From Candidatus Omnitrophota bacterium (GTDB lineage Bacteria; Omnitrophota; Gorgyraeia; Gygaellales; Profunditerraquicolaceae), in the NCBI GenBank assembly GCA_049517335.1, contig JBEKSD010000002.1, positions 85,058 to 149,057 of the forward strand: a stretch of 64,000 bases of DNA. The letters are read 5' to 3'. The notes below the pieces were generated by a model. That model was not told the origin of the DNA. It did not search any database and was given only the letters and a program-made list of their open reading frames with translations. The position numbers and the translations under genes were made by a program. The first letter of the stretch is position 1. Every line of letters starts with the position of its first letter. Positions 10,424-22,038 of the stretch are shown here, in pieces.

Positions 10424-10888
10424 ATGAAACGAAAAAATATAGTTCTCGTATTTGTGTCTTTGTGTGTCCTCGTGTTCGCCGGGTGCGCCATGATGCAGCA
10501 GGATAAATCCTTAAGCTCTAGTACCTCAACATTAGAGCCGCAGGCAATGATTAAATTTCCCGATGTCCCTGTTCCCAGCGGTTTCAAAAGCCTACCTAGC
10601 CAGTCATATTCCTTTGAAAGCTCGGGCGTGCGGGTCGGAGTCTTAAAATTCCAGGGAAAAGCTGAAATAGACCAAATCGTGAATTTTTACAAAGAACAGA
10701 TGGTAATGTATAACTGGAATCTGCTGAATGTAATTGAATACGGGGACCGCCTCTTGAATTTTGACCGCGAAAATGAAACCTGCGTCATTACCCTGATACC
10801 GAAAGGAAAAACGGTTATAATTACTGTTTCTTTGGGGCCGAAATCGCAGGCAGTTACTAAAAAAACGAAGAAAGAACCGGTAAAATAA
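10424..10888 (+). CDS. Hypothetical lipoprotein
   Basis: Lipobox FAGC after a hydrophobic signal; FPDVPVP motif; AGGA SD. Confidence 0.82.
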   Translation: MKRKNIVLVFVSLCVLVFAGCAMMQQDKSLSSSTSTLEPQAMIKFPDVPVPSGFKSLPSQSYSFESSGVRVGVLKFQGKAEIDQIVNFYKEQMVMYNWNLLNVIEYGDRLLNFDRENETCVITLIPKGKTVIITVSLGPKSQAVTKKTKKEPVK

Positions 10889-10916
10889 TATAAGGTGAGA
10901 GAAGCGTAAAAAACTC

Positions 10917-10945
10917 TTGACAAACATAGAGTTATGTGATAAAAA
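10917..10945 (+). promoter_or_regulatory. Putative sigma-70 promoter for the porin gene
   Basis: TTGACA-17 bp-TAAAAA with extended -10 TG. Confidence 0.5.
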
Positions 10946-11139
10946 GGACATAATATAATTTGGATATACCATTGGAGATGGCTTTAATGTTCGGCGGAAA
11001 GGAGGATGAAGCATATAAAATAAGCCGGAGGCCAGAGAAAATCCAGTGATATACTATAGAAAATATACCTAGGATACAATTGAAGAACCTAGTTAAGTGA
11101 TATAGTCAAGAATTTTATTTATCAAGGAGGATTAAGCAA

Positions 11140-12564
11140 ATGAGGAAACATTTAATATTAGTTCTGGCATTAGCGTTAGTAGCCGGCTTAACCGTTGGCG
11201 CCTACGCTGAAGTCCAGAATGTAAAGTTAAGCGGAGACCTAACAGTCTTGGGCTTATCCCGCGACTTATGGATTACTTCTCACCCCGCTGAAAATACTCT
11301 GGCGAGCATTGCCCGTTTAAGAGTTGATGCTGACTTAACGGATAATGTCATAGCCACGGTAAGGCTGATCAATGAAAGATATTGGGGAGCAACGATGGAG
11401 ACAGGAAGTACTTCTACGAGCGATATGTCAGAAAACACCAATATTGACCTTGATTTAGCCTATGTAACCTTAAAAGAGTTCCTGTATTCACCGCTGACCT
11501 TAACCGTTGGCCGTCAGGAACTGCATTTCGGAAACGATATGATTATTGGTGACGCTTATACCAATAACCATGCTTCCAAAGACAGCGTATTCAATAATAC
11601 CATTGACAAAGATTTAAGTATGCGCAAATCATTTGATGCTATCCGCGCAACCTTAAATTATGACCCCTTGGTTATTGATGTTGTAGGCGCGCAAATTAGA
11701 AAAAACTATACAACTTATACGAATATAGCGGGTTATACAACTAATGCCTTAACTAAAGATGACCAGGAAACCCTCATTGGTATGAACGCTAATTACGCTG
11801 TTAGTAAAACAACAGACGTAGAAGGTTATTTCTGGAGTAGAAGAATAGGTAAGGATTCTATTACTGCCGGCAACAAACAAGACACGACCAATGTCGCTGG
11901 TGCGCGCATCGTTACCAAACCTATTACAAACTTGACTTACCAATTAGAAAGCGCATTTGAGTTTGGTAGAAATACGGTTAATACCAATACTTACACTGAC
12001 CTGATAACCGCCGCTCCTTCTAAGGACTTGCAGCGCAGGGCTTGGGCACTTGAAACATCAGCAACTTATGACTTTAAAGACTACAAGAAGATTGGCCAGT
12101 ATAAGCCGACAGTAACCGCGCTTTATGCTTATTTTAGCGGTGACAGAGGTTCCGGAAGCGGTAGCAAAACCAACGGCGCTTGGGATCCGATGTATGAAAA
12201 CCAGAAGTTCGGCGACATCGCCAATGCAGCATTCAACATGAGCGACGGACACACAGCAGGCGGTATCGTAACAATGAAGCCTGTTGATGATGTCATGTTA
12301 AAAGGCGAATATTATGCTTTTTGGTTGGATAAGAGATATGCCGATGGCCAGCAAGTTGCCGTAGTAGCAACCGACGAAGTTGCAACGATGACCCATAAGA
12401 AATTCGTAGGACAGGAACTTGACCTTTCAGCAACCTATGACTACACTGAAGATGTGCAGTTCGGCATCCTCGGTGGTATGTTCTTCACCGGCTCAGCTCT
12501 CGCAAAAGATAACAACCGTAATGTGGCAAGTGAAGTTATTGGTTCAATGAAGGTAACATTCTAA
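11140..12564 (+). CDS. Outer-membrane beta-barrel, alginate-export (AlgE)-like porin
   Basis: Signal peptide AYA-E; motifs DLDLAYVTLKEFLYSPLTLTVGRQEL.FG, FDAIRATL, GQELDL; C-terminal Phe; strong SD. Confidence 0.85.
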   Translation: MRKHLILVLALALVAGLTVGAYAEVQNVKLSGDLTVLGLSRDLWITSHPAENTLASIARLRVDADLTDNVIATVRLINERYWGATMETGSTSTSDMSENTNIDLDLAYVTLKEFLYSPLTLTVGRQELHFGNDMIIGDAYTNNHASKDSVFNNTIDKDLSMRKSFDAIRATLNYDPLVIDVVGAQIRKNYTTYTNIAGYTTNALTKDDQETLIGMNANYAVSKTTDVEGYFWSRRIGKDSITAGNKQDTTNVAGARIVTKPITNLTYQLESAFEFGRNTVNTNTYTDLITAAPSKDLQRRAWALETSATYDFKDYKKIGQYKPTVTALYAYFSGDRGSGSGSKTNGAWDPMYENQKFGDIANAAFNMSDGHTAGGIVTMKPVDDVMLKGEYYAFWLDKRYADGQQVAVVATDEVATMTHKKFVGQELDLSATYDYTEDVQFGILGGMFFTGSALAKDNNRNVASEVIGSMKVTF

Positions 12565-12581
12565 TAAAAGTTATGTAACAT

Positions 12582-12621
12582 AAAAAAGCCCTTGGGGGCG
12601 TAAGTCTCCGAGGGCTTTTTT
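12582..12621 (+). terminator. Rho-independent (probably bidirectional) terminator
   Basis: AAAAAAGCCCTTGGGGGC-GTAA-GTCTCCGAGGGCTTTTTT. Confidence 0.9.
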
Positions 12622-12633
12622 ATTACCCATTAT

Positions 12634-14199
12634 ATGCTATATCTTGCTTTCATCTTCCACATGCACCAGCCATACTATAAGGATCTCCTCACCCAAGAGG
12701 CAGAGCTTCCGTGGGTGCGGCTGCACGGGGTCAAGGATTACCTTGATATGGTGCAAATCTTGGGGCAATTCCCGAAAATTAAACAGAACTTTAACCTTGT
12801 CCCGTCACTACTGGAACAAATTGAAGGCTACGCAAACGACACTTTAAAAGATAAATTCCTTCAATTATCCTCTAAGCCCACAAATGAGCTCAGTTCTTCC
12901 GATCAACAATTCATACTTGATAATTTCTTTTCTATAAATATAGAGAAAGTCATCGCAACGCACCCGCGGTATTATGCTCTCTATTTTAAGCGCCTTAATA
13001 AAGAACAATTTACTGAACAGAACTTTTTAGACCTGCAGGTTTGGTTTAATTTAGCCTGGATTGACCCCTCATTTAGAAATGAGATAGCTGAATTAAAGAA
13101 ACTTATACGCAAGGCCCGTTTTTTTAGCGAAGAAGACAAGCAGGTTGTTTTAAGCAAACAGGCTGAAATCCTACAAAATATAATCCCTGTGTATAAAAAA
13201 TTTATGCAGTCAAAACAGGTTGAATTCACGGTAACGCCTTATTACCACCCCATTCTGCCGCTTCTCTATAATACAAACATAGCAAAGGAAGCTAACAGCA
13301 AAACCATCCTGCCAAAAGTTAAATTTTCTTATCCGCAGGACGCAGAAACCCAGATAAATTTAGCGGTTGATTACTTCAAAGCAAAATTCGGCTCAGCACC
13401 AGTTGGTATGTGGCCATCTGAACAGGCGATAAGCGAACACATATTGCCTTACATAATTAAATCCGGAATAAAATGGATTGTCTTGGATGAAGCGATATTA
13501 TTTAAGTCCCTAAGAAGAAAAAAGAGGGATACTAACCTGCTTTACCAGCCGCATTTTATAAAGAGAGAGGAAGGTGAGCTTTCAATAGTATTCCGCGACA
13601 GGAATTTATCAGATTTAATCGGATTTGTATACCATAAGTGGACAGCGGAAAACGCAGTTTCAGATTTTATCAGGCACCTTGAGGAGATTGCCTCAAGTTT
13701 TAAAGACAGGGATATTTTGGTAACTATTGCTATGGACGGGGAAAACGCGTGGGAATATTATTCAAATGACGGGCATGATTTCCTTCAGCTGCTTTATCAG
13801 AGGCTTTCGGAATCAAAGATGATTCAAACAACAACGGTAAGCGAATATTTGAATCTTAAGCCTACTGCATTAAAAATTGACAGGCTTGCCGCCGGCTCAT
13901 GGATTTTTGGGGAATTCGGAAAATGGATAGGCAATCCGAAAAAGGCGAAAGCGTGGGAATACCTTGCTAAAGCCAGGCAAGAGCTAGAAGAAATCAGAAC
14001 AGGAATTAATTCCAGCTCCGCCAATATAAACTTCGAACTTGCATGGAAACAAATGTATATTTTAGAGGGGAGCGACTGGTTCTGGTGGTTTGGCGAGGAT
14101 CCCGATGGCAGTTTTGACCGCCTTTTCCGCAGGCATTTAACAAACTTCTATAATATAATAGGTAAGGAAGCCCCAGAATATACAACTCGCCCCTTATAA
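12634..14199 (+). CDS. Glycoside hydrolase family 57 (amylopullulanase-like)
   Basis: HMHQPYY, PWVRLH..KDY, PYYHPILPLL, GMWPSE (nucleophile), MDGENAWE (acid/base), EGSDWFWW. Confidence 0.93.
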   Translation: MLYLAFIFHMHQPYYKDLLTQEAELPWVRLHGVKDYLDMVQILGQFPKIKQNFNLVPSLLEQIEGYANDTLKDKFLQLSSKPTNELSSSDQQFILDNFFSINIEKVIATHPRYYALYFKRLNKEQFTEQNFLDLQVWFNLAWIDPSFRNEIAELKKLIRKARFFSEEDKQVVLSKQAEILQNIIPVYKKFMQSKQVEFTVTPYYHPILPLLYNTNIAKEANSKTILPKVKFSYPQDAETQINLAVDYFKAKFGSAPVGMWPSEQAISEHILPYIIKSGIKWIVLDEAILFKSLRRKKRDTNLLYQPHFIKREEGELSIVFRDRNLSDLIGFVYHKWTAENAVSDFIRHLEEIASSFKDRDILVTIAMDGENAWEYYSNDGHDFLQLLYQRLSESKMIQTTTVSEYLNLKPTALKIDRLAAGSWIFGEFGKWIGNPKKAKAWEYLAKARQELEEIRTGINSSSANINFELAWKQMYILEGSDWFWWFGEDPDGSFDRLFRRHLTNFYNIIGKEAPEYTTRPL

Positions 14200-14209
14200 C
14201 AGTAAACTA

Positions 14210-14238
14210 TTGACAGACAATGAGTTTTATGCTATAAA
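14210..14238 (+). promoter_or_regulatory. Putative sigma-70 promoter of the CBM/ParA-CBM48 operon
   Basis: TTGACA-17 bp-TATAAA with TGn extension; 8 nt before the ATG, suggesting a near-leaderless mRNA. Confidence 0.6.
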
Positions 14239-14246
14239 AAGCCGAT

Positions 14247-14810
14247 ATGGATAAGAAGGATATTTACGAGCATCTGGCTAAAATATATCTTGATGCTTCG
14301 TCCACAAAAAAGAAGAAAAATAAAGTTTACTCCAAAATATTCAAAAATCTTTTCTTAATCAGCCTTGTGTGTGTTTTTGGATTATCCACCGTTTTGCTTT
14401 CAAATTTACGCAGGCCTAAGATAAATAATTCTGAAGTTGCCCTCATCTTGGCTCCTGAAGCCTTAAAAATCAACTTTAATTTTGACCCCGCTAAAAAAGA
14501 AACTCTTACCCTTGATTTAAACCGACTTAATTTAAACAATTACAAAAGAATCGCCTTTTCGGTAAAGAAACTGGATATTTCCAACACAATCGCTTTAAGG
14601 GTTGAATTTATAAGCGCGTATAAAGAAAGATCGGAAGTTTACCTGAAAAATATCCCTAGCAAATGGCAGGATTATACGTTTAATCTTTCTGATTTTAAGA
14701 ATATAACTGATTGGTCGGAAACAAAAAATTTATCTTTTACGGTTGAAGAATGGAATACGAAAGAGAATAAAGGAATAGTTTATATAGATAACGTTAGAGT
14801 ATTAAAATAG
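14247..14810 (+). CDS. Single-pass membrane protein with a galactose-binding-like/CBM11/CIA30-type domain
   Basis: Basic N-terminus, one TM helix, then a beta-sandwich pattern (L.L.NYKRIAFSVK...LRVEF...WQDYTF.LSDF..ITDW...GIVYIDNV). Confidence 0.7.
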   Translation: MDKKDIYEHLAKIYLDASSTKKKKNKVYSKIFKNLFLISLVCVFGLSTVLLSNLRRPKINNSEVALILAPEALKINFNFDPAKKETLTLDLNRLNLNNYKRIAFSVKKLDISNTIALRVEFISAYKERSEVYLKNIPSKWQDYTFNLSDFKNITDWSETKNLSFTVEEWNTKENKGIVYIDNVRVLK

Positions 14811-14823
14811 AGAGGAGTGTTAG

Positions 14824-15960
14824 ATGCGTATAATCTGCGTCACCAATCAAAAGGGCGGGTGCGGTAAAACCACGACAGCGATTAATCTGGCTGCGTCTTT
14901 ATCCTTAAATGACAGGAAAGTATTGCTAATTGACCTTGACCCGCAGGCGCACGCTACTTTAGGCCTGAATATAAAAGCAGACTTAAGCATCTATAACGTC
15001 TTATCCAAAATTACCAGTAAGAAAGCTCAGCTGGAAGAAATCATTAAAAACGTAAACCCTAATTTTGACATAGCGCCTTCTGGCATGATTTTGAGCACCT
15101 TAGAACAGGAGTTGGCAGGAGAAATCGGAAGGGAATCGTGCCTAAACGATACCATTAACAATTTTAAGGGCTCTTACGATTACCTGATAATTGATTCGCC
15201 CCCCAATCTGGGGATTTTGACGGTTAACGCCATACGCGCCTCAAGCGAGGTAATCATCCCGGTTGAAGCAAGCCGTTTTTCCCTGGAAGGAGTGTCCCAG
15301 CTTTTAAGTATTATTGAATTGATTAAAGACCGCCTGAACCATAAGGTCAGGCAGCGGGTTTTAGTCGCTAATTTTGATTCGCGCCTAAGGCATTCGTTTG
15401 AAATGCTGAATAAGATAAAAGCTGATTTTAAGGATATATTGTTCAGCAATATTGTGCACGTAAACGTAAAACTGAAAGAAGCGCAAAATTCGGGGACGCA
15501 TATTTTCAATTTTGACAAGTATTGCCGGGGCGCCAAAGATTATTTCAGCCTGAGCCGGGAAATTATCACCGCGGAAACCGAAGTTCCTGAAAAATTCCCC
15601 ACGGAGCTTAAGGATATTGTAAAAAGATTCACCGAGAAAAAAATGGCTAAGGTGGAAAAACGCCTTAACGAGATATTAAAGGAGGAACTGCCTAAGCTTA
15701 ATGAAGTGGTGTTTTCAGTATCCGCACCGGCCGCAAAAGAGGTATTCCTTGTTGGTGAATTCAATAATTGGAAGGCGGATGAATCCGGGAAGATGAATAA
15801 TGTTGACGGGACCTGGATAAAAAGCCTCATGCTTCATCCGGGGAAATACCGTTACCGCTTTATCATTGACGGCTCCTGGACAGAGGATGAAAAGAACCCG
15901 CTTAAAGAAAGCAACCCTTTCGGTACGCTTGACTCATTTGTTGAGGTAGAAAAAGCATGA
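14824..15960 (+). CDS. ParA/Soj-family ATPase fused to a C-terminal CBM48 (AMPK-beta-like glycogen-binding) domain
   Basis: Deviant Walker A NQKGGCGKTT, IDLDPQAHAT, IIDSPPNLG; C-terminus AKEVFLVGEFNNW...GKYRYRFIIDGSW..D..NP..NPFG. Confidence 0.9.
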   Translation: MRIICVTNQKGGCGKTTTAINLAASLSLNDRKVLLIDLDPQAHATLGLNIKADLSIYNVLSKITSKKAQLEEIIKNVNPNFDIAPSGMILSTLEQELAGEIGRESCLNDTINNFKGSYDYLIIDSPPNLGILTVNAIRASSEVIIPVEASRFSLEGVSQLLSIIELIKDRLNHKVRQRVLVANFDSRLRHSFEMLNKIKADFKDILFSNIVHVNVKLKEAQNSGTHIFNFDKYCRGAKDYFSLSREIITAETEVPEKFPTELKDIVKRFTEKKMAKVEKRLNEILKEELPKLNEVVFSVSAPAAKEVFLVGEFNNWKADESGKMNNVDGTWIKSLMLHPGKYRYRFIIDGSWTEDEKNPLKESNPFGTLDSFVEVEKA

Positions 15961-16283
15961 ACGCTGGAAGAGAAGAAAAAGAGATACAGGAGGGAAAGTT
16001 TTTTGCCATAATTTCGTATTTAAGCTTCCTGTGTATAATTAGCCTTGTCTTAAAAAAAGACAACAAATTTTCCCTTTATCATGCCAAGCAGGGCCTTGTG
16101 CTCTTTGTTTTTGAAGTCGGCTCTTTCATATTAACCATTATCCCTATTTTGGGAGGCGTAGTGAGGGTACTCAGCCTGATAATTTTTATCCTTGCTTCCC
16201 TTTGGTGTATCTTGCAGGTTTTAATGGGCAATTACAACCGTCTGCCCGTAATCTCAGAGATAGCGGATAATATTACAATTTAA
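15957..16283 (+). CDS. DUF4870-like small membrane protein
   Basis: AIISYL...KKDNKFSLYHAKQGLVL...IPILG...LPVI; three TM segments. Confidence 0.82.
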   Translation: MNAGREEKEIQEGKFFAIISYLSFLCIISLVLKKDNKFSLYHAKQGLVLFVFEVGSFILTIIPILGGVVRVLSLIIFILASLWCILQVLMGNYNRLPVISEIADNITI

Positions 16284-16294
16284 GGAGGTGGGAT

Positions 16295-16666
16295 ATGCCT
16301 TCAAAAAAGAAAACAATAGGAAAAAAAACGGTAAAGAAAAAGGCAGTAAAGAGGAAACCGGCTGGGAAAAAAACAGGTAAGAAAACGGTTAGGAAAGTGC
16401 CTGTTGTAAAAAAACCGAAAAAAGAACCCATCATAGGTAAAGTAACGCATTATTTCCCGCACGTACGCGCGGCTGTAATCAAATTAAAGGCGCCCTTGGC
16501 AGTAGGAGATACCGTAAAAATTAAAGGCCACACAACGGATTTTAACCAGAGAGTCTCATCCTTACAGATAGACCGCACGCCAATAACCGAAGCAAAAAAA
16601 GGACAGGAGATCGGCCTTCTTGTGGATTCACGGGTAAGGCAACATGATGTGGTAATCAAAATTTAA
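16295..16666 (+). CDS. Translation-elongation-factor-domain-II-like beta-barrel with a histone-H1-like Lys-rich N-terminus
   Basis: About 45 aa of KKT/V/A repeats, then IGKVTHYF..V.AAVIKL..PLAVGDTVKIKGHTTDF.Q.V.SLQID...GQEIGL.V..RVR..D.V. Confidence 0.85.
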   Translation: MPSKKKTIGKKTVKKKAVKRKPAGKKTGKKTVRKVPVVKKPKKEPIIGKVTHYFPHVRAAVIKLKAPLAVGDTVKIKGHTTDFNQRVSSLQIDRTPITEAKKGQEIGLLVDSRVRQHDVVIKI

Positions 16667-16687
16667 ACAACAGGAGGGGAGTCAGCT

Positions 16688-16870
16688 ATGAGGCTTTTGG
16701 CAATTGAAAAGAAAGCGAAGGATTTAGGTATCACTGATACCTGGAAATACTCCAAGAGTGACTTAATTAAGCTTATCCAGAAGAAAGAAGGCAATCAGGA
16801 GTGTTTTGCCACAAAATCGCGTTCAAAATGCAACCAGTTTATTTGCTGCTGGAGGGCTGACTGCACATGA
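16688..16870 (+). CDS. Small Rho-N/SAP-like domain protein with a Cys cluster
   Basis: AKDLGI...KSDLIKLIQKKEGN..CF......C.Q..CCWR.DC; strong SD. Confidence 0.8.
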   Translation: MRLLAIEKKAKDLGITDTWKYSKSDLIKLIQKKEGNQECFATKSRSKCNQFICCWRADCT

Positions 16871-17052
16871 AATATCGCTGCCAGATCTGTGACAGGGATA
16901 TTGACGATTATGTCAGCATTGCCCATATAAAGGCCGAAGAATATCTTATTGATCTTATTCAAAAAGACCATCCGGAATGGCACGAAAGCAAGAAAACCTG
17001 CCATAAATGTATCGAATATTACCGAAAATTAGTTAAAGAAAACGAAATTTAG
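16867..17052 (+). CDS. Small putative Zn-binding protein
   Basis: CxxC...H...LI.LI.KDHPEW...CxxC; ATGA overlap with the upstream gene. Confidence 0.75.
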   Translation: MKYRCQICDRDIDDYVSIAHIKAEEYLIDLIQKDHPEWHESKKTCHKCIEYYRKLVKENEI

Positions 17053-17057
17053 ACAAT

Positions 17058-17091
17058 AAACCGGGGTCGGAATTAATTCCGACCCCGGTTT
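17058..17091. repeat. Perfect 34-bp palindrome (REP-like, may also act as a terminator)
   Basis: AAACCGGGGTCGGAATT|AATTCCGACCCCGGTTT. Confidence 0.9.
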
Positions 17092-17104
17092 TTAACCTTA
17101 TTTC

Positions 17105-17118
17105 TGAGTATATACTCA
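17105..17118. promoter_or_regulatory. Palindromic operator candidate upstream of the DUF134 gene
   Basis: Perfect palindrome TGAGTATATACTCA about 45 bp upstream of an HTH gene. Confidence 0.55.
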
Positions 17119-17161
17119 TATTAACCCCAGCGTTAAAAGTAAGTAAGTTCGAGTAAAGTAA

Positions 17162-17500
17162 ATGCAGTTACAAGGAAGGCCCAAAAAATATAGGATTGTG
17201 CGCACAGACCCCAAAATTAGCCAATTTAGCCCAAGGGGCCGTCCAGGAAGGCCTAATGAAGCGGATCTCACTATGGATGAGTACGAAGCCATACGGCTTT
17301 CAGATTATATGGGATTATCCCAGAAAGAAGCCAGCCAATCAATGCACATATCCCAGCAAACTTTCAGCAGAATCCTGAAAAAGGCCCGGAAAACAATAGC
17401 AAAAGGGCTGATTGACGGAGCAACTATAAAGATTCAGGGCGGCCAGTACGTAGTTACATCCCACAAAGATTTCCAACCAAATTCCTACAAAAAACTCTAA
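17162..17500 (+). CDS. DUF134 (UPF0251) DNA-binding protein
   Basis: GRPKK.R...LTMDEYEAIRLSDY.GLSQ.EA..MHISQQTFSRIL..AR..IA..L..G..I.I.GG. Confidence 0.9.
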   Translation: MQLQGRPKKYRIVRTDPKISQFSPRGRPGRPNEADLTMDEYEAIRLSDYMGLSQKEASQSMHISQQTFSRILKKARKTIAKGLIDGATIKIQGGQYVVTSHKDFQPNSYKKL

Positions 17501-17582
17501 AATTCCGGTAAATACAAGTAAACAACTATAGACGCTGAGCCTCAAAAGCGGTCGACTTGGTACCAAAATCGCTATTTGCTCA

Positions 17583-17610
17583 ACTTCCTATAATATACAT
17601 TATGTTAACT
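17583..17610 (+). other. dif: XerC/XerD dif site (chromosome dimer resolution site)
   Basis: ACTTCCTATAA-TATACA-TTATGTTAACT in the 11-6-11 layout; left arm close to B. subtilis dif, right arm close to the E. coli XerD arm; coincides with the gene-strand switch. Confidence 0.88.
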
Positions 17611-17785
17611 TGATGATATTGAGAAAATTACCTTATCTTATTCTATCCCAATAGGTTATATTATATTGTTTTTATGCTGTGGATAAGTCAAAAACCGTTT
17701 CCTTAAACTTACTTCTTTTTTAAAAGGTTGATATTCCGGTGGGATTACTTTCATTTTCCTATAAGGTTTTTTTGCGTTTAATCGC

Positions 17786-18180
17786 TTATTTCATCTTGCG
17801 GGTAAAACTGACTATGGCAGGATAGATTGAGTTTTCTCCAAAGCGGTCGCGTTAATCCGGTCTACGGCTTTCAATAAGCCCTCCCTCCGTTTTTGCTCAA
17901 AAAACAAGACAGGGTAGCTTTCTCGGCAAAGCTCCCACTCCCAGAGCCCTGATTTCAGGGGTTCTAGGGCCTGTTTTAGCCAGTATTTTAAGGGATCTCT
18001 GGAAATCCCTATAACTTCATTGATTGCATGAGTCGAAGTTTTCTGAGCTGAAAAACTGCCTATTTCCGGGCCATTTAGCCAAAGATGAATGGTAAAACTA
18101 AGGAGATTTTGCTCCCTGAGCTGCCTGGTAACCATAACCTATCCAGGCTCTTATAAATTGGGGGTTTCTGGAACCACTAG
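17786..18180 (-). pseudogene. dinB: Frameshifted C-terminal remnant of a Y-family DNA polymerase (DinB/Pol IV)
   Basis: RQLREQNL.SFTIHLWL...FSAQKT and KRREGLLKAVDRIN, then a frameshift to DRFGENSIYPA...*; catalytic domain absent. Confidence 0.72.
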
Positions 18181-18211
18181 GAAAGGTATACGAGTGGCCA
18201 ATTGACTTGGG

Positions 18212-18225
18212 TAAACCGGGGTCAG
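18212..18225 (+). repeat. Left 14-bp inverted repeat of the AT-rich island (half of the 17058 palindrome type)
   Basis: TAAACCGGGGTCAG is the exact reverse complement of 21371-21384. Confidence 0.8.
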
Positions 18226-18268
18226 AGTCTAAGGGTTCTAACTCTAATTAATGCGTAAAATCATTTGA

Positions 18269-19987
18269 TTATTTTGGGAGTTTTTTTAAGCTATATAAAG
18301 CTGCCTGATTTGCGGGATCTATTGTTAATGTTTTCTGCCACATCTTTCTTGCTTCATCATAATTATTCATTTTAGCATAAGTAATCCCAAGCCCGTTATA
18401 TGCCTCAGGGTATTCTTTATTTAATTCTACGGCTTTTTCGTAATACCTAATCGCATCTATATATCTTCCGTTTTGCCCTACAGCGCTGGCTAAATTATTC
18501 CATGCCCTATAAAAATTAGGGTCTAAATCCAAAGCTGCCTTAAACTCCTCAATGGCTTCTGCGGTCATCCTTTTATTGAAATAACATTTACCCAATTCAT
18601 TATGGTCTTCCGCATAATTCTTATCTAAACTTACCGCGATTTTATACTCTTTAATCGCTTCATCCAATAAACCTCTTTCAACATAAAAAGCGGCTAAGGT
18701 ACTATGAGGCAGGGAATTGGTAGGATATTTATCTACCATATTCATCCAAAAAATAATATTGTTTTTATAGTAGAAATTACCCGTGAACGTAAAAATAGCA
18801 TAAAAAATAATAATAGCTATTGCTATATTCTTAGAAAACTTCGAAATTAGCAACGCAAGGATCAAACAAAAACCTACTGCCGGTAAATATAAATAACGGG
18901 GGGCAATGTAATTTGATAACGGGTATATTATGTTAGAAACTGGAATAAGACAGGCAAAGAACCAAAATACCCCAAATGCAACCAAAGGAAGCTTCTTATG
19001 CAATTTAAACGTAGTAAAAACAATTGATATTATCAATAAAACCGAAATTATAACTTTCAGGTTAAGTAACGAGTATGAAATTAAACCTGGATCATCCGGC
19101 AACGTAGAATGAATATTAACGGGAAAGAACATCCATTGAACATATCTGGCCAAAACCCTTAGCATGGTAAGAATATTTGTATATAAATTCCTCATTGGGT
19201 ATGTAATTAACGGATTATCAATGCTAGCCATTACAAAAAACCTGATAAAAATATAAAAAATCAAAACGCCTAAATACCCCAAATAATACCTTTTAAAATG
19301 AGAAATAACGTCTTTGGGCCTTTTATTCAACAAATAATCGTAACCTAATAAAAGAATAGGGAAGGTAACAGACATTTCTTTAGAAAATAATGCCAAACAA
19401 AAAGAGACTAAAGAAGAGAAGTAAAACAACGCCCTCCTCCCTGCCTCCTCCCCCCTGCTTTTTATATAAAAAATAAAGGCTAAAATATAAAACAAGAAAG
19501 CAAGCAGATCCTTCCTAAAAGAAATACAGTTTACTGCTTCTACATTTACAGGATGAAGAGCAAAAAACAAAGATGCCAATATGGCTACTACCTCATTTCC
19601 TACTATTAAGTTTATAAACATGAAAAGAAGCAACGCATTCAACATGTGCAGGATAAGGTTTGTAAAGTGGTACCCGAAAGGGTTCAGCTTCCAAAAAGAA
19701 TAATCTAGGAAATAAGTAAAAGTCCCTATCGGTCTGTATGTAAACTCTCCGGAACCTGTATCCTTTTTTCCAAGATAATCCAAATCCGAAACTTTAGTCA
19801 GGTAACTTCTGTTAAAAAGACGGGGGAAATTATTCCAGGATTTGACAAAATCATTATTCACTATAACTGTAGAATCATCCCATATAAATGAATTTTGGAG
19901 GGAATTAGAATAAGCTAATGCCGTAAAAAACACTATGAATATAATAACCCATTTATTACCGCGTAAAATTGTATCTTTCGATATCAT
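18269..19987 (-). CDS. TMTC-like GT-C membrane glycosyltransferase with C-terminal TPRs
   Basis: FIWDD, YRP, GYHFTNLILH, FALHPVNVEAV..IS.R.D, ALFSKE, RYLYLP; TPR repeats; AT-rich. Confidence 0.88.
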   Translation of the reverse strand: MISKDTILRGNKWVIIFIVFFTALAYSNSLQNSFIWDDSTVIVNNDFVKSWNNFPRLFNRSYLTKVSDLDYLGKKDTGSGEFTYRPIGTFTYFLDYSFWKLNPFGYHFTNLILHMLNALLLFMFINLIVGNEVVAILASLFFALHPVNVEAVNCISFRKDLLAFLFYILAFIFYIKSRGEEAGRRALFYFSSLVSFCLALFSKEMSVTFPILLLGYDYLLNKRPKDVISHFKRYYLGYLGVLIFYIFIRFFVMASIDNPLITYPMRNLYTNILTMLRVLARYVQWMFFPVNIHSTLPDDPGLISYSLLNLKVIISVLLIISIVFTTFKLHKKLPLVAFGVFWFFACLIPVSNIIYPLSNYIAPRYLYLPAVGFCLILALLISKFSKNIAIAIIIFYAIFTFTGNFYYKNNIIFWMNMVDKYPTNSLPHSTLAAFYVERGLLDEAIKEYKIAVSLDKNYAEDHNELGKCYFNKRMTAEAIEEFKAALDLDPNFYRAWNNLASAVGQNGRYIDAIRYYEKAVELNKEYPEAYNGLGITYAKMNNYDEARKMWQKTLTIDPANQAALYSLKKLPK

Positions 19988-21402: not shown

Positions 21403-22008
21403 TCAATATTTTCTTATTACTGTAATAAGCTTGCCTATAACCTTAAATTCTTCAAATATTGGCGGGTAGTTCTGATTAGCGGCTTCTAAATGGAACTTAC
21501 CGGCTTTAGTACGTAGCCTCTTTAAAGTAACTTCATTATTATCTAAGAGTGCCGCGACTATATCGTTATTACTGGCATCAGGCCGTTTTTTGATAATGGC
21601 AATATCGCCATCAAGAATTCCAGCACCAATCATACTGTCGCCTTTAACCCTTAAAGCAAAAACATCATCAAAGCCTAAGCGGCCAAGGAATAAATCATCG
21701 GCATCCACATAACCCTGGATTTCTTCATAAGCCAGATTCGGCTTACCGGCCATTATGGTGCCAATTATGGGAATCTTGTTAAAGCTGGCGCACTCAGTTA
21801 ATTCAATTGCCCGGGATTTATTGTTCATACGCCTGACCAAGCCTTTCTGCATTAAAGCCTTTAAATAGTCCCTTACTGTGCCCGTGGATTTAAACCCCAG
21901 CTCCTCCCCTATTTCACGGATTGTAGGAGGGAGCCTCTCCCCTACCTGTTTACGGATAAAATTAAGCACTTTTTCCTGCTTCGCAGTCAAATTCGGCTTC
22001 TTTTCCAT
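21403..22008 (-). CDS. lexA: SOS repressor LexA
   Basis: LT.KQ..VL.FI...PPTIREIG..LGFKS; AG cleavage site; VKGDSM catalytic Ser; VTLKR catalytic Lys; start reassigned to ATG at 22008. Confidence 0.95.
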   Translation of the reverse strand: MEKKPNLTAKQEKVLNFIRKQVGERLPPTIREIGEELGFKSTGTVRDYLKALMQKGLVRRMNNKSRAIELTECASFNKIPIIGTIMAGKPNLAYEEIQGYVDADDLFLGRLGFDDVFALRVKGDSMIGAGILDGDIAIIKKRPDASNNDIVAALLDNNEVTLKRLRTKAGKFHLEAANQNYPPIFEEFKVIGKLITVIRKY

Positions 22009-22020
22009 GCTTCCACATAT

Positions 22021-22038
22021 ACCACACATTTGTGTGGT
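22021..22038. promoter_or_regulatory. Candidate LexA operator in the lexA promoter spacer
   Basis: ACCACACA-TT-TGTGTGGT perfect IR next to a minus-strand TTGACA (22040-22045). Confidence 0.65.

Follow-up and report, generated by a model that had tools for sequence, protein, structure and literature searches.

ATPases of the ParA/MinD family organise DNA as well as protein-based cargos, and their partner proteins generally act via the N-terminal region (PMC11407121; PMC10241942). In the orphan systems McdA/McdB, PpfA/TlpT, ParC/ParP and PomXYZ, a ParA-type ATPase serves a non-DNA cargo together with an adjacent, lineage-specific partner (PMC11407121; PMC10241942). Here, we describe a locus of Candidatus Omnitrophota, located on a stretch of 64,000 nucleotides (contig JBEKSD010000002.1, assembly GCA_049517335.1; this whole stretch is referred to as the window), in which one gene encodes a ParA-type ATPase fused to a carbohydrate-binding module of family CBM48 and the gene directly upstream encodes p187, a single-pass membrane protein and predicted partner. 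This ParA-CBM48 fusion resembles the orphan systems in the type of ATPase, in the proposed non-DNA cargo and in the adjacent, lineage-specific partner. However, in McdA/McdB and the other orphan systems the adaptor is a separate protein, whereas here the CBM and the ATPase form one protein, with a polysaccharide as the proposed cargo; McdA itself is only 22% identical to the fusion.

The chromosomal ParA/Soj proteins (8RAY from Myxococcus xanthus, 2BEK from Thermus thermophilus and 6IUB from Helicobacter pylori) have in common with the fusion the fold, the deviant Walker A motif, a basic position for DNA binding and a pocket of hydrophobic residues at the edge of the dimer. In contrast to them, the fusion possesses a linker and the CBM48, has no parB next to it, carries a cysteine in the motif KGGCGKT and a glutamine (Q95) in the pocket, and its partner is a membrane protein or a pseudo-ATPase instead of a CTPase clamp. 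The CBM48 is of the same family as the glycogen-binding domain of the beta subunit of AMPK (AMP-activated protein kinase; 1Z0N, 1Z0M), of which both stacking tryptophans and the hydrophobic character of position L146 are kept, position K126 being occupied by arginine, lysine or glutamine. Unlike in AMPK beta, the module is placed on a P-loop ATPase and not on a kinase scaffold, an extra tryptophan (W331) replaces a phenylalanine, and the position of T148 is not kept. BcsQ, which acts together with BcsR and BcsE in bacterial cellulose secretion, is likewise a ParA/MinD ATPase that is linked to a polysaccharide and has membrane-associated partners; the fusion differs from it in that its locus holds no synthase, in an identity of only 13–15% and in its CBM48, which is predicted to be cytoplasmic and specific for alpha-glucan.

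For storage granules, the proteins PhaM and PhaF link polyhydroxybutyrate granules to the nucleoid for their distribution at division; they do so with lysine-rich, histone-like tails and without an ATPase, and their granules consist of a polyester. To our knowledge, the placement and inheritance of glycogen granules in bacteria are essentially unexplained. Neither a ParA fused to CBM48 nor a ParA/MinD system for glycogen was found described in the open-access literature searched, and the word glycogen has 0 occurrences in the two overviews of ParA/MinD systems cited above. A Soj-type ATPase, a CBM48 and a partner acting by an N-terminal peptide are known kinds of components; the novelty lies in the way they are combined, in a polysaccharide as the proposed cargo and in the families of partners.

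The ATPase domain and the CBM48 module

The sequence-only reading of this stretch had described the N-terminal part of the fusion as a complete Soj-like ATPase, and this was borne out. Residues 1–175 match Pfam AAA_31 (E 1.7e-53), and the closest solved sequence is M. xanthus ParA (8ray_B, E 5e-50). An AlphaFold2 model of the fusion, generated from 49 relatives, has a mean predicted local distance difference test score (pLDDT) of 90 with a confident ATPase domain (residues 1–252), for which the best folds identified by Foldseek are the chromosomal Soj/ParA proteins 8RAY, 2BEK and 6IUB (35–39% identity, template modelling (TM) score by target 0.89–0.95; for 8ray 38–39% and 0.92), followed more weakly by McdA (22% identity), MinD and BcsQ (13–15% identity). 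Pfam CBP_BcsQ also matches the ATPase (E 9.5e-12). In NCBIfam no equivalog reached its cut-off, ParA_partition scoring 107 bits against a cut-off of 180.

Conservation was assessed in an alignment of 49 ParA-CBM48 fusions (alignment A2, in which the linker region is poorly aligned). The deviant Walker A motif NQKGGCGKT (residues 8–16, N8 to T16) is invariant in 49/49 sequences, including the signature lysine K10 and K15. Equally invariant in all 49 are D37, D39 and D124, which we take to be the catalytic aspartates of motif 2 and Walker B. The Walker A cysteine Cys13 (14860–14862) is found in 49/49 aligned fusions and in 125 of 136 top representatives, and Gln95 (15106–15108), located where the pocket of M. 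xanthus ParA has the valine V116, is invariant as well; together, these two residues mark the ParA clade of the fusion. Moreover, the counterpart of the DNA-binding R238 of M. xanthus ParA is K216, a position with lysine or arginine in 40 of the 49 sequences; therefore, the nucleoid is the likely matrix, on which the ATPase would probably sit via a conserved basic surface. The motifs that had been singled out beforehand, i.e., KGGCGKTT, DSRLR (within FDSRLRHS), NVKL (within NVKLKE), FNNW and DGSW, are all present in the protein.

The C-terminal part matches two Pfam families above their cut-offs, AMPK1_CBM at residues 303–377 (E 1.1e-12, 48.5 bits versus 26.8) and CBM_48 at residues 291–352 (E 1.4e-6, 29.0 bits versus 22.4), and its closest solved sequence is the glycogen-binding domain of AMPK beta1 (1z0n_A, E 8.9e-11). 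It is modelled as a beta-sandwich over residues 293–375 with a pLDDT above 90. For rat AMPK beta1, residues W100, K126, W133, L146 and T148 were reported to touch the carbohydrate, and their mutation markedly cuts glycogen binding (PMC2642990). Two of these, W100 and W133, correspond to W316 and W352 of the fusion and are tryptophan in 49/49 aligned sequences, so the claim that the module keeps both sugar-stacking tryptophans holds throughout the alignment. K126 corresponds to R345 (R in 21, K in 16 and Q in 12 of 49), L146 to F366 (F in 25 and Y in 18, i.e., F/Y in 43/49) and T148 to T368, a position that varies. A third tryptophan, W331, is invariant in 49/49, AMPK beta1 having a phenylalanine there. 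Since W316 and W352 are invariant, the sugar-stacking platform appears to be under selection across a wide divergence, as expected of a working alpha-glucan-binding module.

Both domains are joined by a segment of low confidence (pLDDT 52–60 over residues 251–290) with a helix predicted at residues 260–288. Among 102 fusion representatives, Walker A and the CBM48 lie between 264 and 617 residues apart, suggesting that the linker acts as a tether whose length is free to vary.

Distribution of the fusion and its partner proteins

A search with the C-terminal 124 residues resulted in 154 relatives (E ≤ 1e-3) among 260 candidates, and 118 of the 120 listed carry AAA_31 together with AMPK1_CBM; with a Myxococcota-type query, 1,886 candidates included 1,062 relatives, and both domains are present in 119 of the 120 that were listed. 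A chance origin of the fusion is excluded because it is conserved in nearly all of these listed relatives. The organisms named by the source among the matches listed are all Candidatus Omnitrophota/Omnitrophica for the first search and all Myxococcota or Deltaproteobacteria metagenome-assembled genomes (MAGs) for the second. Furthermore, in a profile search of 1.84 billion cluster representatives (50% identity) the best 150 all have E ≤ 7e-88, and by a pattern test at least 102 of these best 150 are fusions. The ParA+CBM48 architecture, with more than 1,000 protein clusters, is accordingly a large conserved family and not the sporadic fusion that the sequence-only reading had named as the finding that would speak against it.

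For the genomic context, a genome scan for relatives was used in which 586 of 599 candidate stretches were confirmed and 80 loci (numbered with the prefix L) were kept, about 21 kb being covered per related genome. Of these, 69 match via the CBM48, contig ends truncate 2, and the other 9 are relatives that lack a CBM48. The open reading frames (ORFs) of the 80 loci and the window were clustered by all-against-all BLASTP; the ParA gene was recovered in 72 loci and the window, the remaining 8 being high-GC loci. Neighbour frequencies refer only to loci holding enough flanking DNA, and 23 + 76 + 16 = 115 neighbour proteins were scanned for domains. By title, the loci belong to Omnitrophota, Planctomycetales/Planctomycetia, Myxococcota, Thermodesulfobacteriota, Eisenbacteria, Phycisphaerae, Tepidisphaeraceae and Spirochaetaceae; every fusion member found stems from uncultured MAGs, the taxon labels of which are possibly unreliable. 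A tree of the ParA domains (FastTree, rooted at the midpoint and without support values) unites the Omnitrophota fusions in one group, whereas those of other phyla come out as paraphyletic, with acidic-tail ParAs nested among them; this tree is too weak to choose between one gain of the module and several. The MAG with the contig prefix CAZOKO01 has two ParAs, one of the CBM48 type (L046) and one of the acidic-tail type (L054), which fits cargo-specific paralogues.

The acidic-tail ParAs belong to a set of KGGCGKT-clade ParAs without CBM48 from Desulfobacterales/Thermodesulfobacteriota MAGs (L042, L045, L049, L050, L052, L054 and L058). A C-terminal acidic tail marked by a conserved SSYSxMIE-like motif is present in 5 of these 7 (L045, L050, L052, L054, L058), L042 having a near variant and L049 remaining unmatched; the tail may be another cargo adaptor. 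Two fusions labelled delta proteobacterium (L053:10001-11134 and L061:10001-11134) group in the tree with the deep Omnitrophota ParAs (f18 type, see below) and have neither a p187 nor an f18 gene next to them, which could be due to gene transfer or to a binning error. Among the best scores of the fusion profile are also proteins of 685–1812 amino acids with 5–18 CBM48-like repeats and no ParA domain (P0121, P0149, P0157, P0213, P0216, P0240 and P0267).

In 41/41 Omnitrophota-type loci (L001–L041) as well as in the window, the fusion is directly preceded, on its own strand, by a gene for p187 or a homologue of it, the gaps ranging from -80 to 228 bases. The AlphaFold2 model of p187 (pLDDT 90.4) consists of a helix (residues 3–18), a lysine-rich linker (19–29), a membrane helix (30–54) and a beta-sandwich (65–186; pLDDT above 95). 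By Foldseek, the best folds for the sandwich in the PDB are the CBM11 module 6r31_A (E 2.3e-7), 1wzx_A (E 1.5e-5) and 7t7y (E 2.4e-5), the matches comprising CBM11, CBM30, CBM8 and CBM16 modules and the complex I assembly intermediate 7zkq; structure rows of the Atlas give CBM_11 and CIA30 with TM scores of 0.61–0.62, the sequence clusters consisting only of Omnitrophota entries named hypothetical protein. This likeness is one of the fold, with 13–16% sequence identity and a best Pfam match of E 0.02, and p187 belongs to no Pfam or NCBIfam family. The first 29 residues hold 8 K+R versus 4 D+E, and because of this the N-terminus is likely inside and the C-terminus outside, the sandwich being probably periplasmic.

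The most conserved segment of p187 is its N-terminus, KK[DE]IYEHLAxIYLD: in an alignment of 44 p187/f18 sequences (alignment A1), L10, A11 and Y14 are kept in at least 90%. The family f18 replaces p187 upstream of the fusion in 7 deeper Omnitrophota loci; its members (240–290 amino acids) have a p187-like build, are alignable with p187 and keep these three residues even though they are only 17–20% identical overall. In the sandwich, W140 is invariant in the alignment, and the lysine stretch behind the N-terminal helix is not conserved. A short, presumably cytoplasmic peptide whose conservation exceeds that of the folded domain carries the signature of a binding motif. The earlier description of p187 as a single-pass protein with a carbohydrate-binding-like domain thus stands, whereas its conserved N-terminal feature is an amphipathic helix and not the basic stretch that had been emphasised.

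For M. xanthus ParB it was reported that L11, L15, L18 and I19 form a short helix that docks in a hydrophobic pocket of ParA (V116, L150, L152, L155, L187, L192) and that R13 is needed for stimulation of the ATPase (PMC12462528). By the 8ray_B alignment (chain index + 19, checked against G151), this pocket maps to Q95, L129, I131, V134, L166 and L171 of the fusion, 5 of the 6 positions being hydrophobic. Residues I6, L10, I13 and Y14 of p187 have the spacing i, i+4, i+7, i+8 of the four docking residues of ParB. Pocket position 134 is V/I in 34/34 ParAs of the p187 type and F in 6/6 of the f18 type and 9/9 of the second module type described next, a pattern that fits partner-specific tuning and is confounded by phylogeny. 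A complex prediction with two copies of ParA-CBM48, ATP/Mg and p187 residues 1–32, based on alignments A2 and A1, gave a score of 0.00 versus a mark of 0.32, without folded controls and with an uncertain fold of the peptide, and therefore counts neither for nor against binding of the p187 peptide.

In other lineages, the fusion is part of a different module, called type II (L043, L044, L046, L059, L062, L070 and L075; in L070 without CBM48), with the order ParA, f22 (286–393 amino acids) and f44 (about 190–400 amino acids, with a weak NucS_C-like match); a MerR-type gene lies upstream in L070, L073 and L075. The f22 proteins, always encoded directly downstream of ParA, contain a CbiA/ParA-like P-loop domain (Pfam E 7e-8) with a degenerate Walker A. 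They begin with a ParB-like peptide such as KKLGRGLEDISHLFLS, in which L, R, L and I take the places of L11, R13, L15 and L18 of ParB. The peptide contains LGRGL, a consensus of ParB. A PDB sequence search with the f22 N-terminal peptide gave no match to ParB, the sole match being unrelated (E 1.6). A hidden Markov model (HMM) built from 9 type II peptides retrieved 11 proteins at E ≤ 3e-6 among 1,345 ORFs, of which 10 adjoin a ParA gene; the eleventh is a DUF4912 protein of 627 amino acids in L062 (L062:13725-15608), encoded beside a GH57 branching enzyme, with the partner peptide at residues 44–60 followed by long lysine/alanine-rich repeats. No account of a function of DUF4912 was found in the literature searched, and the DUF4912 protein of L046 (8249-9343, - strand) is without the partner peptide. 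With two motif-bearing proteins, L062 recalls the two activators of PomZ (PMC13170346). A regular expression for a motif shared by both peptide classes matches 49 of the 1,345 ORFs, all adjoining ParA, against a rough chance estimate of about 1.5 hits; the pattern is post hoc and drawn from both classes, so this is not an independent test. Each lineage has its own adjacent ParA partner.

No ParB was found among these partners. The lack of parB in the window had been noted before and was confirmed by a Pfam scan that covered two small ORFs and 74 of the 78 non-overlapping ORFs with a length of 60 amino acids or more (the 4 remaining ORFs are of at most 85 amino acids) and revealed no ParBc domain. 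Likewise, no ParBc was found among the 115 neighbour proteins scanned and no ParB-like family in the gene-order maps of the 72 loci, and no parB adjoins any fusion examined.

Glucan genes and the further neighbourhood

Upstream of p187, the window encodes a GH57 enzyme (Table 1), the nearest solved structure of which is the Aquifex aeolicus amylopullulanase (8zyi/9iht, E about 1e-88). This enzyme, AaApu, hydrolyses glycogen, pullulan and starch with the catalytic pair E256/D352 (PMC12106739), corresponding to the predicted nucleophile E263 and acid/base D368 of the window protein. Of the conserved GH57 regions, HMHQP (residue 9), WPSEQ (260), DGENAW (368) and EGSDW (478) are present, and the second one (GKGSV in AaApu) was not located in the window protein. 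It has neither a membrane helix nor a signal peptide, and because of the latter it is expected to act in the cytoplasm. A GH57 gene lies directly upstream of the p187 gene in 22/33 assessable loci; the glucan linkage asserted in the sequence-only reading is therefore frequent and the amylopullulanase itself confirmed, but the linkage is not obligatory.

In the distant modules, a GH57 branching enzyme (Glyco_hydro_57 + BE_C) and a DUF4912 protein are encoded within a few kb of the fusion in L046 and L062, the same branching-enzyme family occurs with a GHL15 protein in L043, and L059 holds a GH15 gene, i.e., glucan genes are found in 4/15 distant loci with scanned neighbours. Because such genes are rare in genomes, their recurrence in unrelated module types suggests a meaningful association, and the glucan linkage would have arisen more than once. 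Synthesis of glycogen is reported to be encoded by Omnitrophota MAGs (PMC8542988).

The coordinates of the four genes proposed earlier were confirmed on the + strand. The genes are closely packed. GH57 and p187 are 47 bases apart, and an AGGAG is found in the 13 bases that separate p187 from the fusion; the stop codon of the fusion and the ATG of p108 share the 4 bases ATGA, an overlap noted before, by which translation of p108 is predicted to be coupled to that of the ParA gene; p123 follows p108 after a gap of 11 bases that contains a GGAGG ribosome-binding site. A consensus scan of 10800–18300 found promoter-like and terminator-like signals not above shuffles (10 versus a mean of 17.8 and 8 versus 8.0, respectively), and it is from the spacing only that we infer an operon.

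Among the further members, a porin family gene lies at most 2.5 kb upstream of the p187 gene in 23/26 loci. A p108 homologue directly follows the fusion in 21/39 loci; the DUF4870 label that p108 had received could not be upheld, as no Pfam or NCBIfam match was found even at E ≤ 10 (HMMER filters discard most matches above E of about 0.1). More constant than GH57 is p123, which was not part of the earlier description, with a homologue at most 1.5 kb downstream of the fusion in 30/35 loci. Its N-terminal tail is of variable length, histone-H1-like and about 45–50% K+R, and its C-terminal small beta-barrel of 78 amino acids is conserved; weak Pfam matches are GTP_EFTU_D2 (E 3.5e-4) and HC2 (E 0.03). 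The protein may bind the nucleoid and belong to the system, and its tail resembles the lysine-rich, histone-like tails of PhaM/PhaF, without any sequence relation.

Table 1. Positions of the module genes, their domains and the f22 partner genes (window numbering unless a locus is given)
Feature	Position	Strand	Basis
Porin, Alginate_exp family, outer-membrane beta-barrel, signal peptide	11140..12564	+	Pfam PF13372 E 5.9e-24; hydrophobic stretch residues 1-26
GH57 amylopullulanase-type alpha-glucan hydrolase, 521 aa (amino acids), predicted cytoplasmic	12634..14199	+	Pfam PF03065 E 1.2e-66
p187, 187 aa, single-pass inner-membrane protein, predicted ParA partner	14247..14810	+	no Pfam/NCBIfam family; AlphaFold2
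p187 conserved motif, residues 5-16	14259-14294	+	alignment A1
p187 membrane helix	14334-14408	+	AlphaFold2; one hydrophobic helix at residues 31-55
p187 CBM11/CIA30-like beta-sandwich	14439-14804	+	AlphaFold2 + Foldseek
ParA-CBM48 fusion, 378 aa	14824..15960	+	Pfam AAA_31 + AMPK1_CBM + CBM_48
ParA/Soj-type deviant Walker A ATPase domain, residues 1-252	14824..15579	+	AAA_31 E 1.7e-53
Charged flexible linker, residues 253-292	15580..15699	+	AlphaFold2 low pLDDT
CBM48/AMPK-beta-type domain, residues 293-378, then stop codon	15700..15960	+	AMPK1_CBM E 1.1e-12
p108, 108 aa, small membrane protein, optional member	15957..16283	+	hydrophobic stretches at residues 12-34 and 44-93
p123, 123 aa, K/R-rich tail + small beta-barrel, frequent member	16295..16666	+	weak Pfam matches
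f22	L043:11089-11949		N-terminal peptide LGRGLxD.SH.FLS
f22	L044:3339-4277		N-terminal peptide LGRGLxD.SH.FLS
f22	L046:4476-5462		N-terminal peptide LGRGLxD.SH.FLS
f22	L059:10995-11993		N-terminal peptide LGRGLxD.SH.FLS
f22	L062:11128-12045		N-terminal peptide LGRGLxD.SH.FLS
f22	L070:10900-11817		N-terminal peptide LGRGLxD.SH.FLS
f22	L075:11070-12251		N-terminal peptide LGRGLxD.SH.FLS

Downstream of p123, positions 16688–17500 of the window hold an ORF of 60 amino acids that is Rho_N-like and one of 61 amino acids that is zinc-ribbon-like, followed by a DUF134 regulator; the families f25, f26 and DUF134 recur downstream in several related loci. At about 17.6 kb (window 17500–18300) the GC skew flips from positive to negative and the genes flip from the + to the - strand, and arms converging in this way resemble a replication terminus and not an origin. 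The window also holds a LexA gene (21403–22029), and a gene for a DinB-type polymerase (IMS family; in L001 at L001:12671-13831) lies on the opposite strand just past the module in several relatives; both seem to be ordinary SOS genes with no apparent tie to the module.

A proposed glycogen-positioning module and its alternatives

The explanation which we tentatively prefer is that of a ParA/MinD-type positioning or tethering module, in which the ATPase holds glycogen via its own CBM48 and p187 serves as the partner. From the domain architecture, the residue conservation, the gene linkage and the family size, which are observed, we infer a sequence of events comprising glucan binding, DNA binding, a contact of peptide and ATPase and a cellular outcome. 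The ParA domain would form ATP-bound dimers, probably on the nucleoid via the conserved basic surface, and the CBM48 on its variable, flexible linker would hold alpha-glucan (glycogen) particles, the dimers thereby bridging glycogen to the nucleoid. At the cytoplasmic face of the inner membrane, p187 would display its conserved N-terminal amphipathic helix, which may dock in the partner pocket at the ParA dimer edge like the peptides of ParB, McdB, MinE and PomX and switch the ATPase. Glycogen would thereby be released, relocated or passed to the membrane side, and granules would be distributed or tethered and hence inherited at division. The GH57 amylopullulanase encoded nearby would have this polymer as its substrate.

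Several points weigh against this explanation. Position 345 of the CBM48 is glutamine in 12/49 sequences and position 368 is variable, and the module could bind another alpha-glucan or a protein. The ATPase is nearest to chromosomal Soj/ParA (38–39% identity to 8RAY) and less like the proven orphan positioners (McdA 22%). Usually it is the partner by which the cargo is marked, a scheme that does not match a ParA with a permanently attached cargo adaptor. The Omnitrophota partner p187 is a membrane protein with its large domain probably in the periplasm, so it does not sit on glycogen. GH57 is missing in 11/33 assessable loci, and neither the window nor those frequent neighbour families that were scanned in the loci of the p187 type (type I) contained glgA, glgB, glgC or glgP. 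As to the partner peptides, E8 of p187 stands, in register, where ParB has the activating R13, and of the four residues receiving R13 only Y57 and E96 seem to be kept (judged partly by eye). A kinship between the p187 and type II peptides was unsupported by HMMs in both directions: the type II model matches p187 at best with E 4.2, and the reverse model recovers all 49 p187/f18 peptides and has a best type II match of E 3.1.

Alternatively, glycogen might be a signal instead of the cargo, the CBM48 being a sensor that alters dimerisation, ATPase activity or location of a ParA with another cargo such as a p187 envelope complex, the division site or the chromosome. We consider this unlikely, although allosteric sensing of glycogen is described for the AMPK domain (PMC2642990), the invariant partner p187 belongs to the membrane proteins instead of being a glycogen protein, GH57 is dispensable in a third of the assessable loci and the ATPase keeps Soj-like surfaces for DNA and partner. 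The linker is long and of low confidence, and with a length that varies between about 30 and more than 300 residues it fits a tether better than it fits an allosteric contact; moreover, the type II partners are soluble, and the DUF4912 partner encoded beside a branching enzyme in L062 points to the glycogen particle.

Quite improbable is an envelope machine for the uptake or export of glucan, in which the porin, p187 and p108 would span the envelope, ParA would organise or gate them in the manner of BcsQ, and dextrin taken up in this way would pass to the CBM48 and be cleaved by GH57. It would account for the frequent porin gene, for the CBM11/CBM30-like sandwich beyond the membrane helix of p187, for the CBP_BcsQ match and the presence of BcsQ among the fold matches and for a GH57 enzyme which, having no signal peptide, would act on imported glucan. 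However, the conserved core contains no transporter, synthase or glycosyltransferase, type II modules keep the CBM48 without any porin or membrane partner, BcsQ is only 13–15% identical to the fusion as compared to 35–39% for Soj, and the family name Alginate_exp says little about the substrate of the porin.

A chromosomal ParA (Soj) with its ParB encoded elsewhere, the CBM48 as an accessory anchor and p187 as a second, membrane-bound regulator like the polar landmark proteins is about equally improbable, since the best sequence and fold matches (8ray_B E 5e-50; TM 0.92–0.95), the largely hydrophobic ParB pocket (5/6), the basic DNA-binding position, the absence of any other ParA-like gene from the 64-kb window and the label chromosome partitioning protein given by public pipelines, all of which favour it, are set against the absence of ParBc from the window and the 115 scanned neighbours and of any conserved ParB-sized family beside the fusion in 72 loci, an adjacent partner proper to every lineage, a MAG with two paralogues that differ in their C-terminal modules, the change of pocket residue V116 to an invariant Q95 along with the invariant Walker A cysteine, the terminus-like GC skew and gene convergence (weak evidence) and the canonical ParA and ParB reported for M. 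xanthus (PMC12462528), which make the ParA of the fusion likely an extra one in Myxococcota.

Going beyond the positioning module of a single locus, ParA-CBM48 and its partners may constitute a widespread, undescribed partition system for glycogen granules, the first with a polysaccharide cargo and the first with an adaptor built into the ATPase. In this broader form, which we regard as possible and as somewhat more doubtful than the module itself, different phyla would plug in interchangeable partners (p187, the pseudo-ParA f22 or the DUF4912 protein encoded by the branching enzyme), and sister KGGCGKT ParAs with other C-terminal modules, such as the acidic SSYSxMIE tail, would serve other cargos.

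With an ATPase carrying its own alpha-glucan-binding module, the ParA principle would come to include a carbohydrate store, and the fusion would be a natural example of an ATPase joined to its adaptor. Furthermore, the locus would provide a first functional context for the unannotated families p187, f22 and p123, possibly also for DUF4912. The ParA-CBM48 family as a whole suggests an active placement or tethering of sugar stores in many uncultured bacteria.

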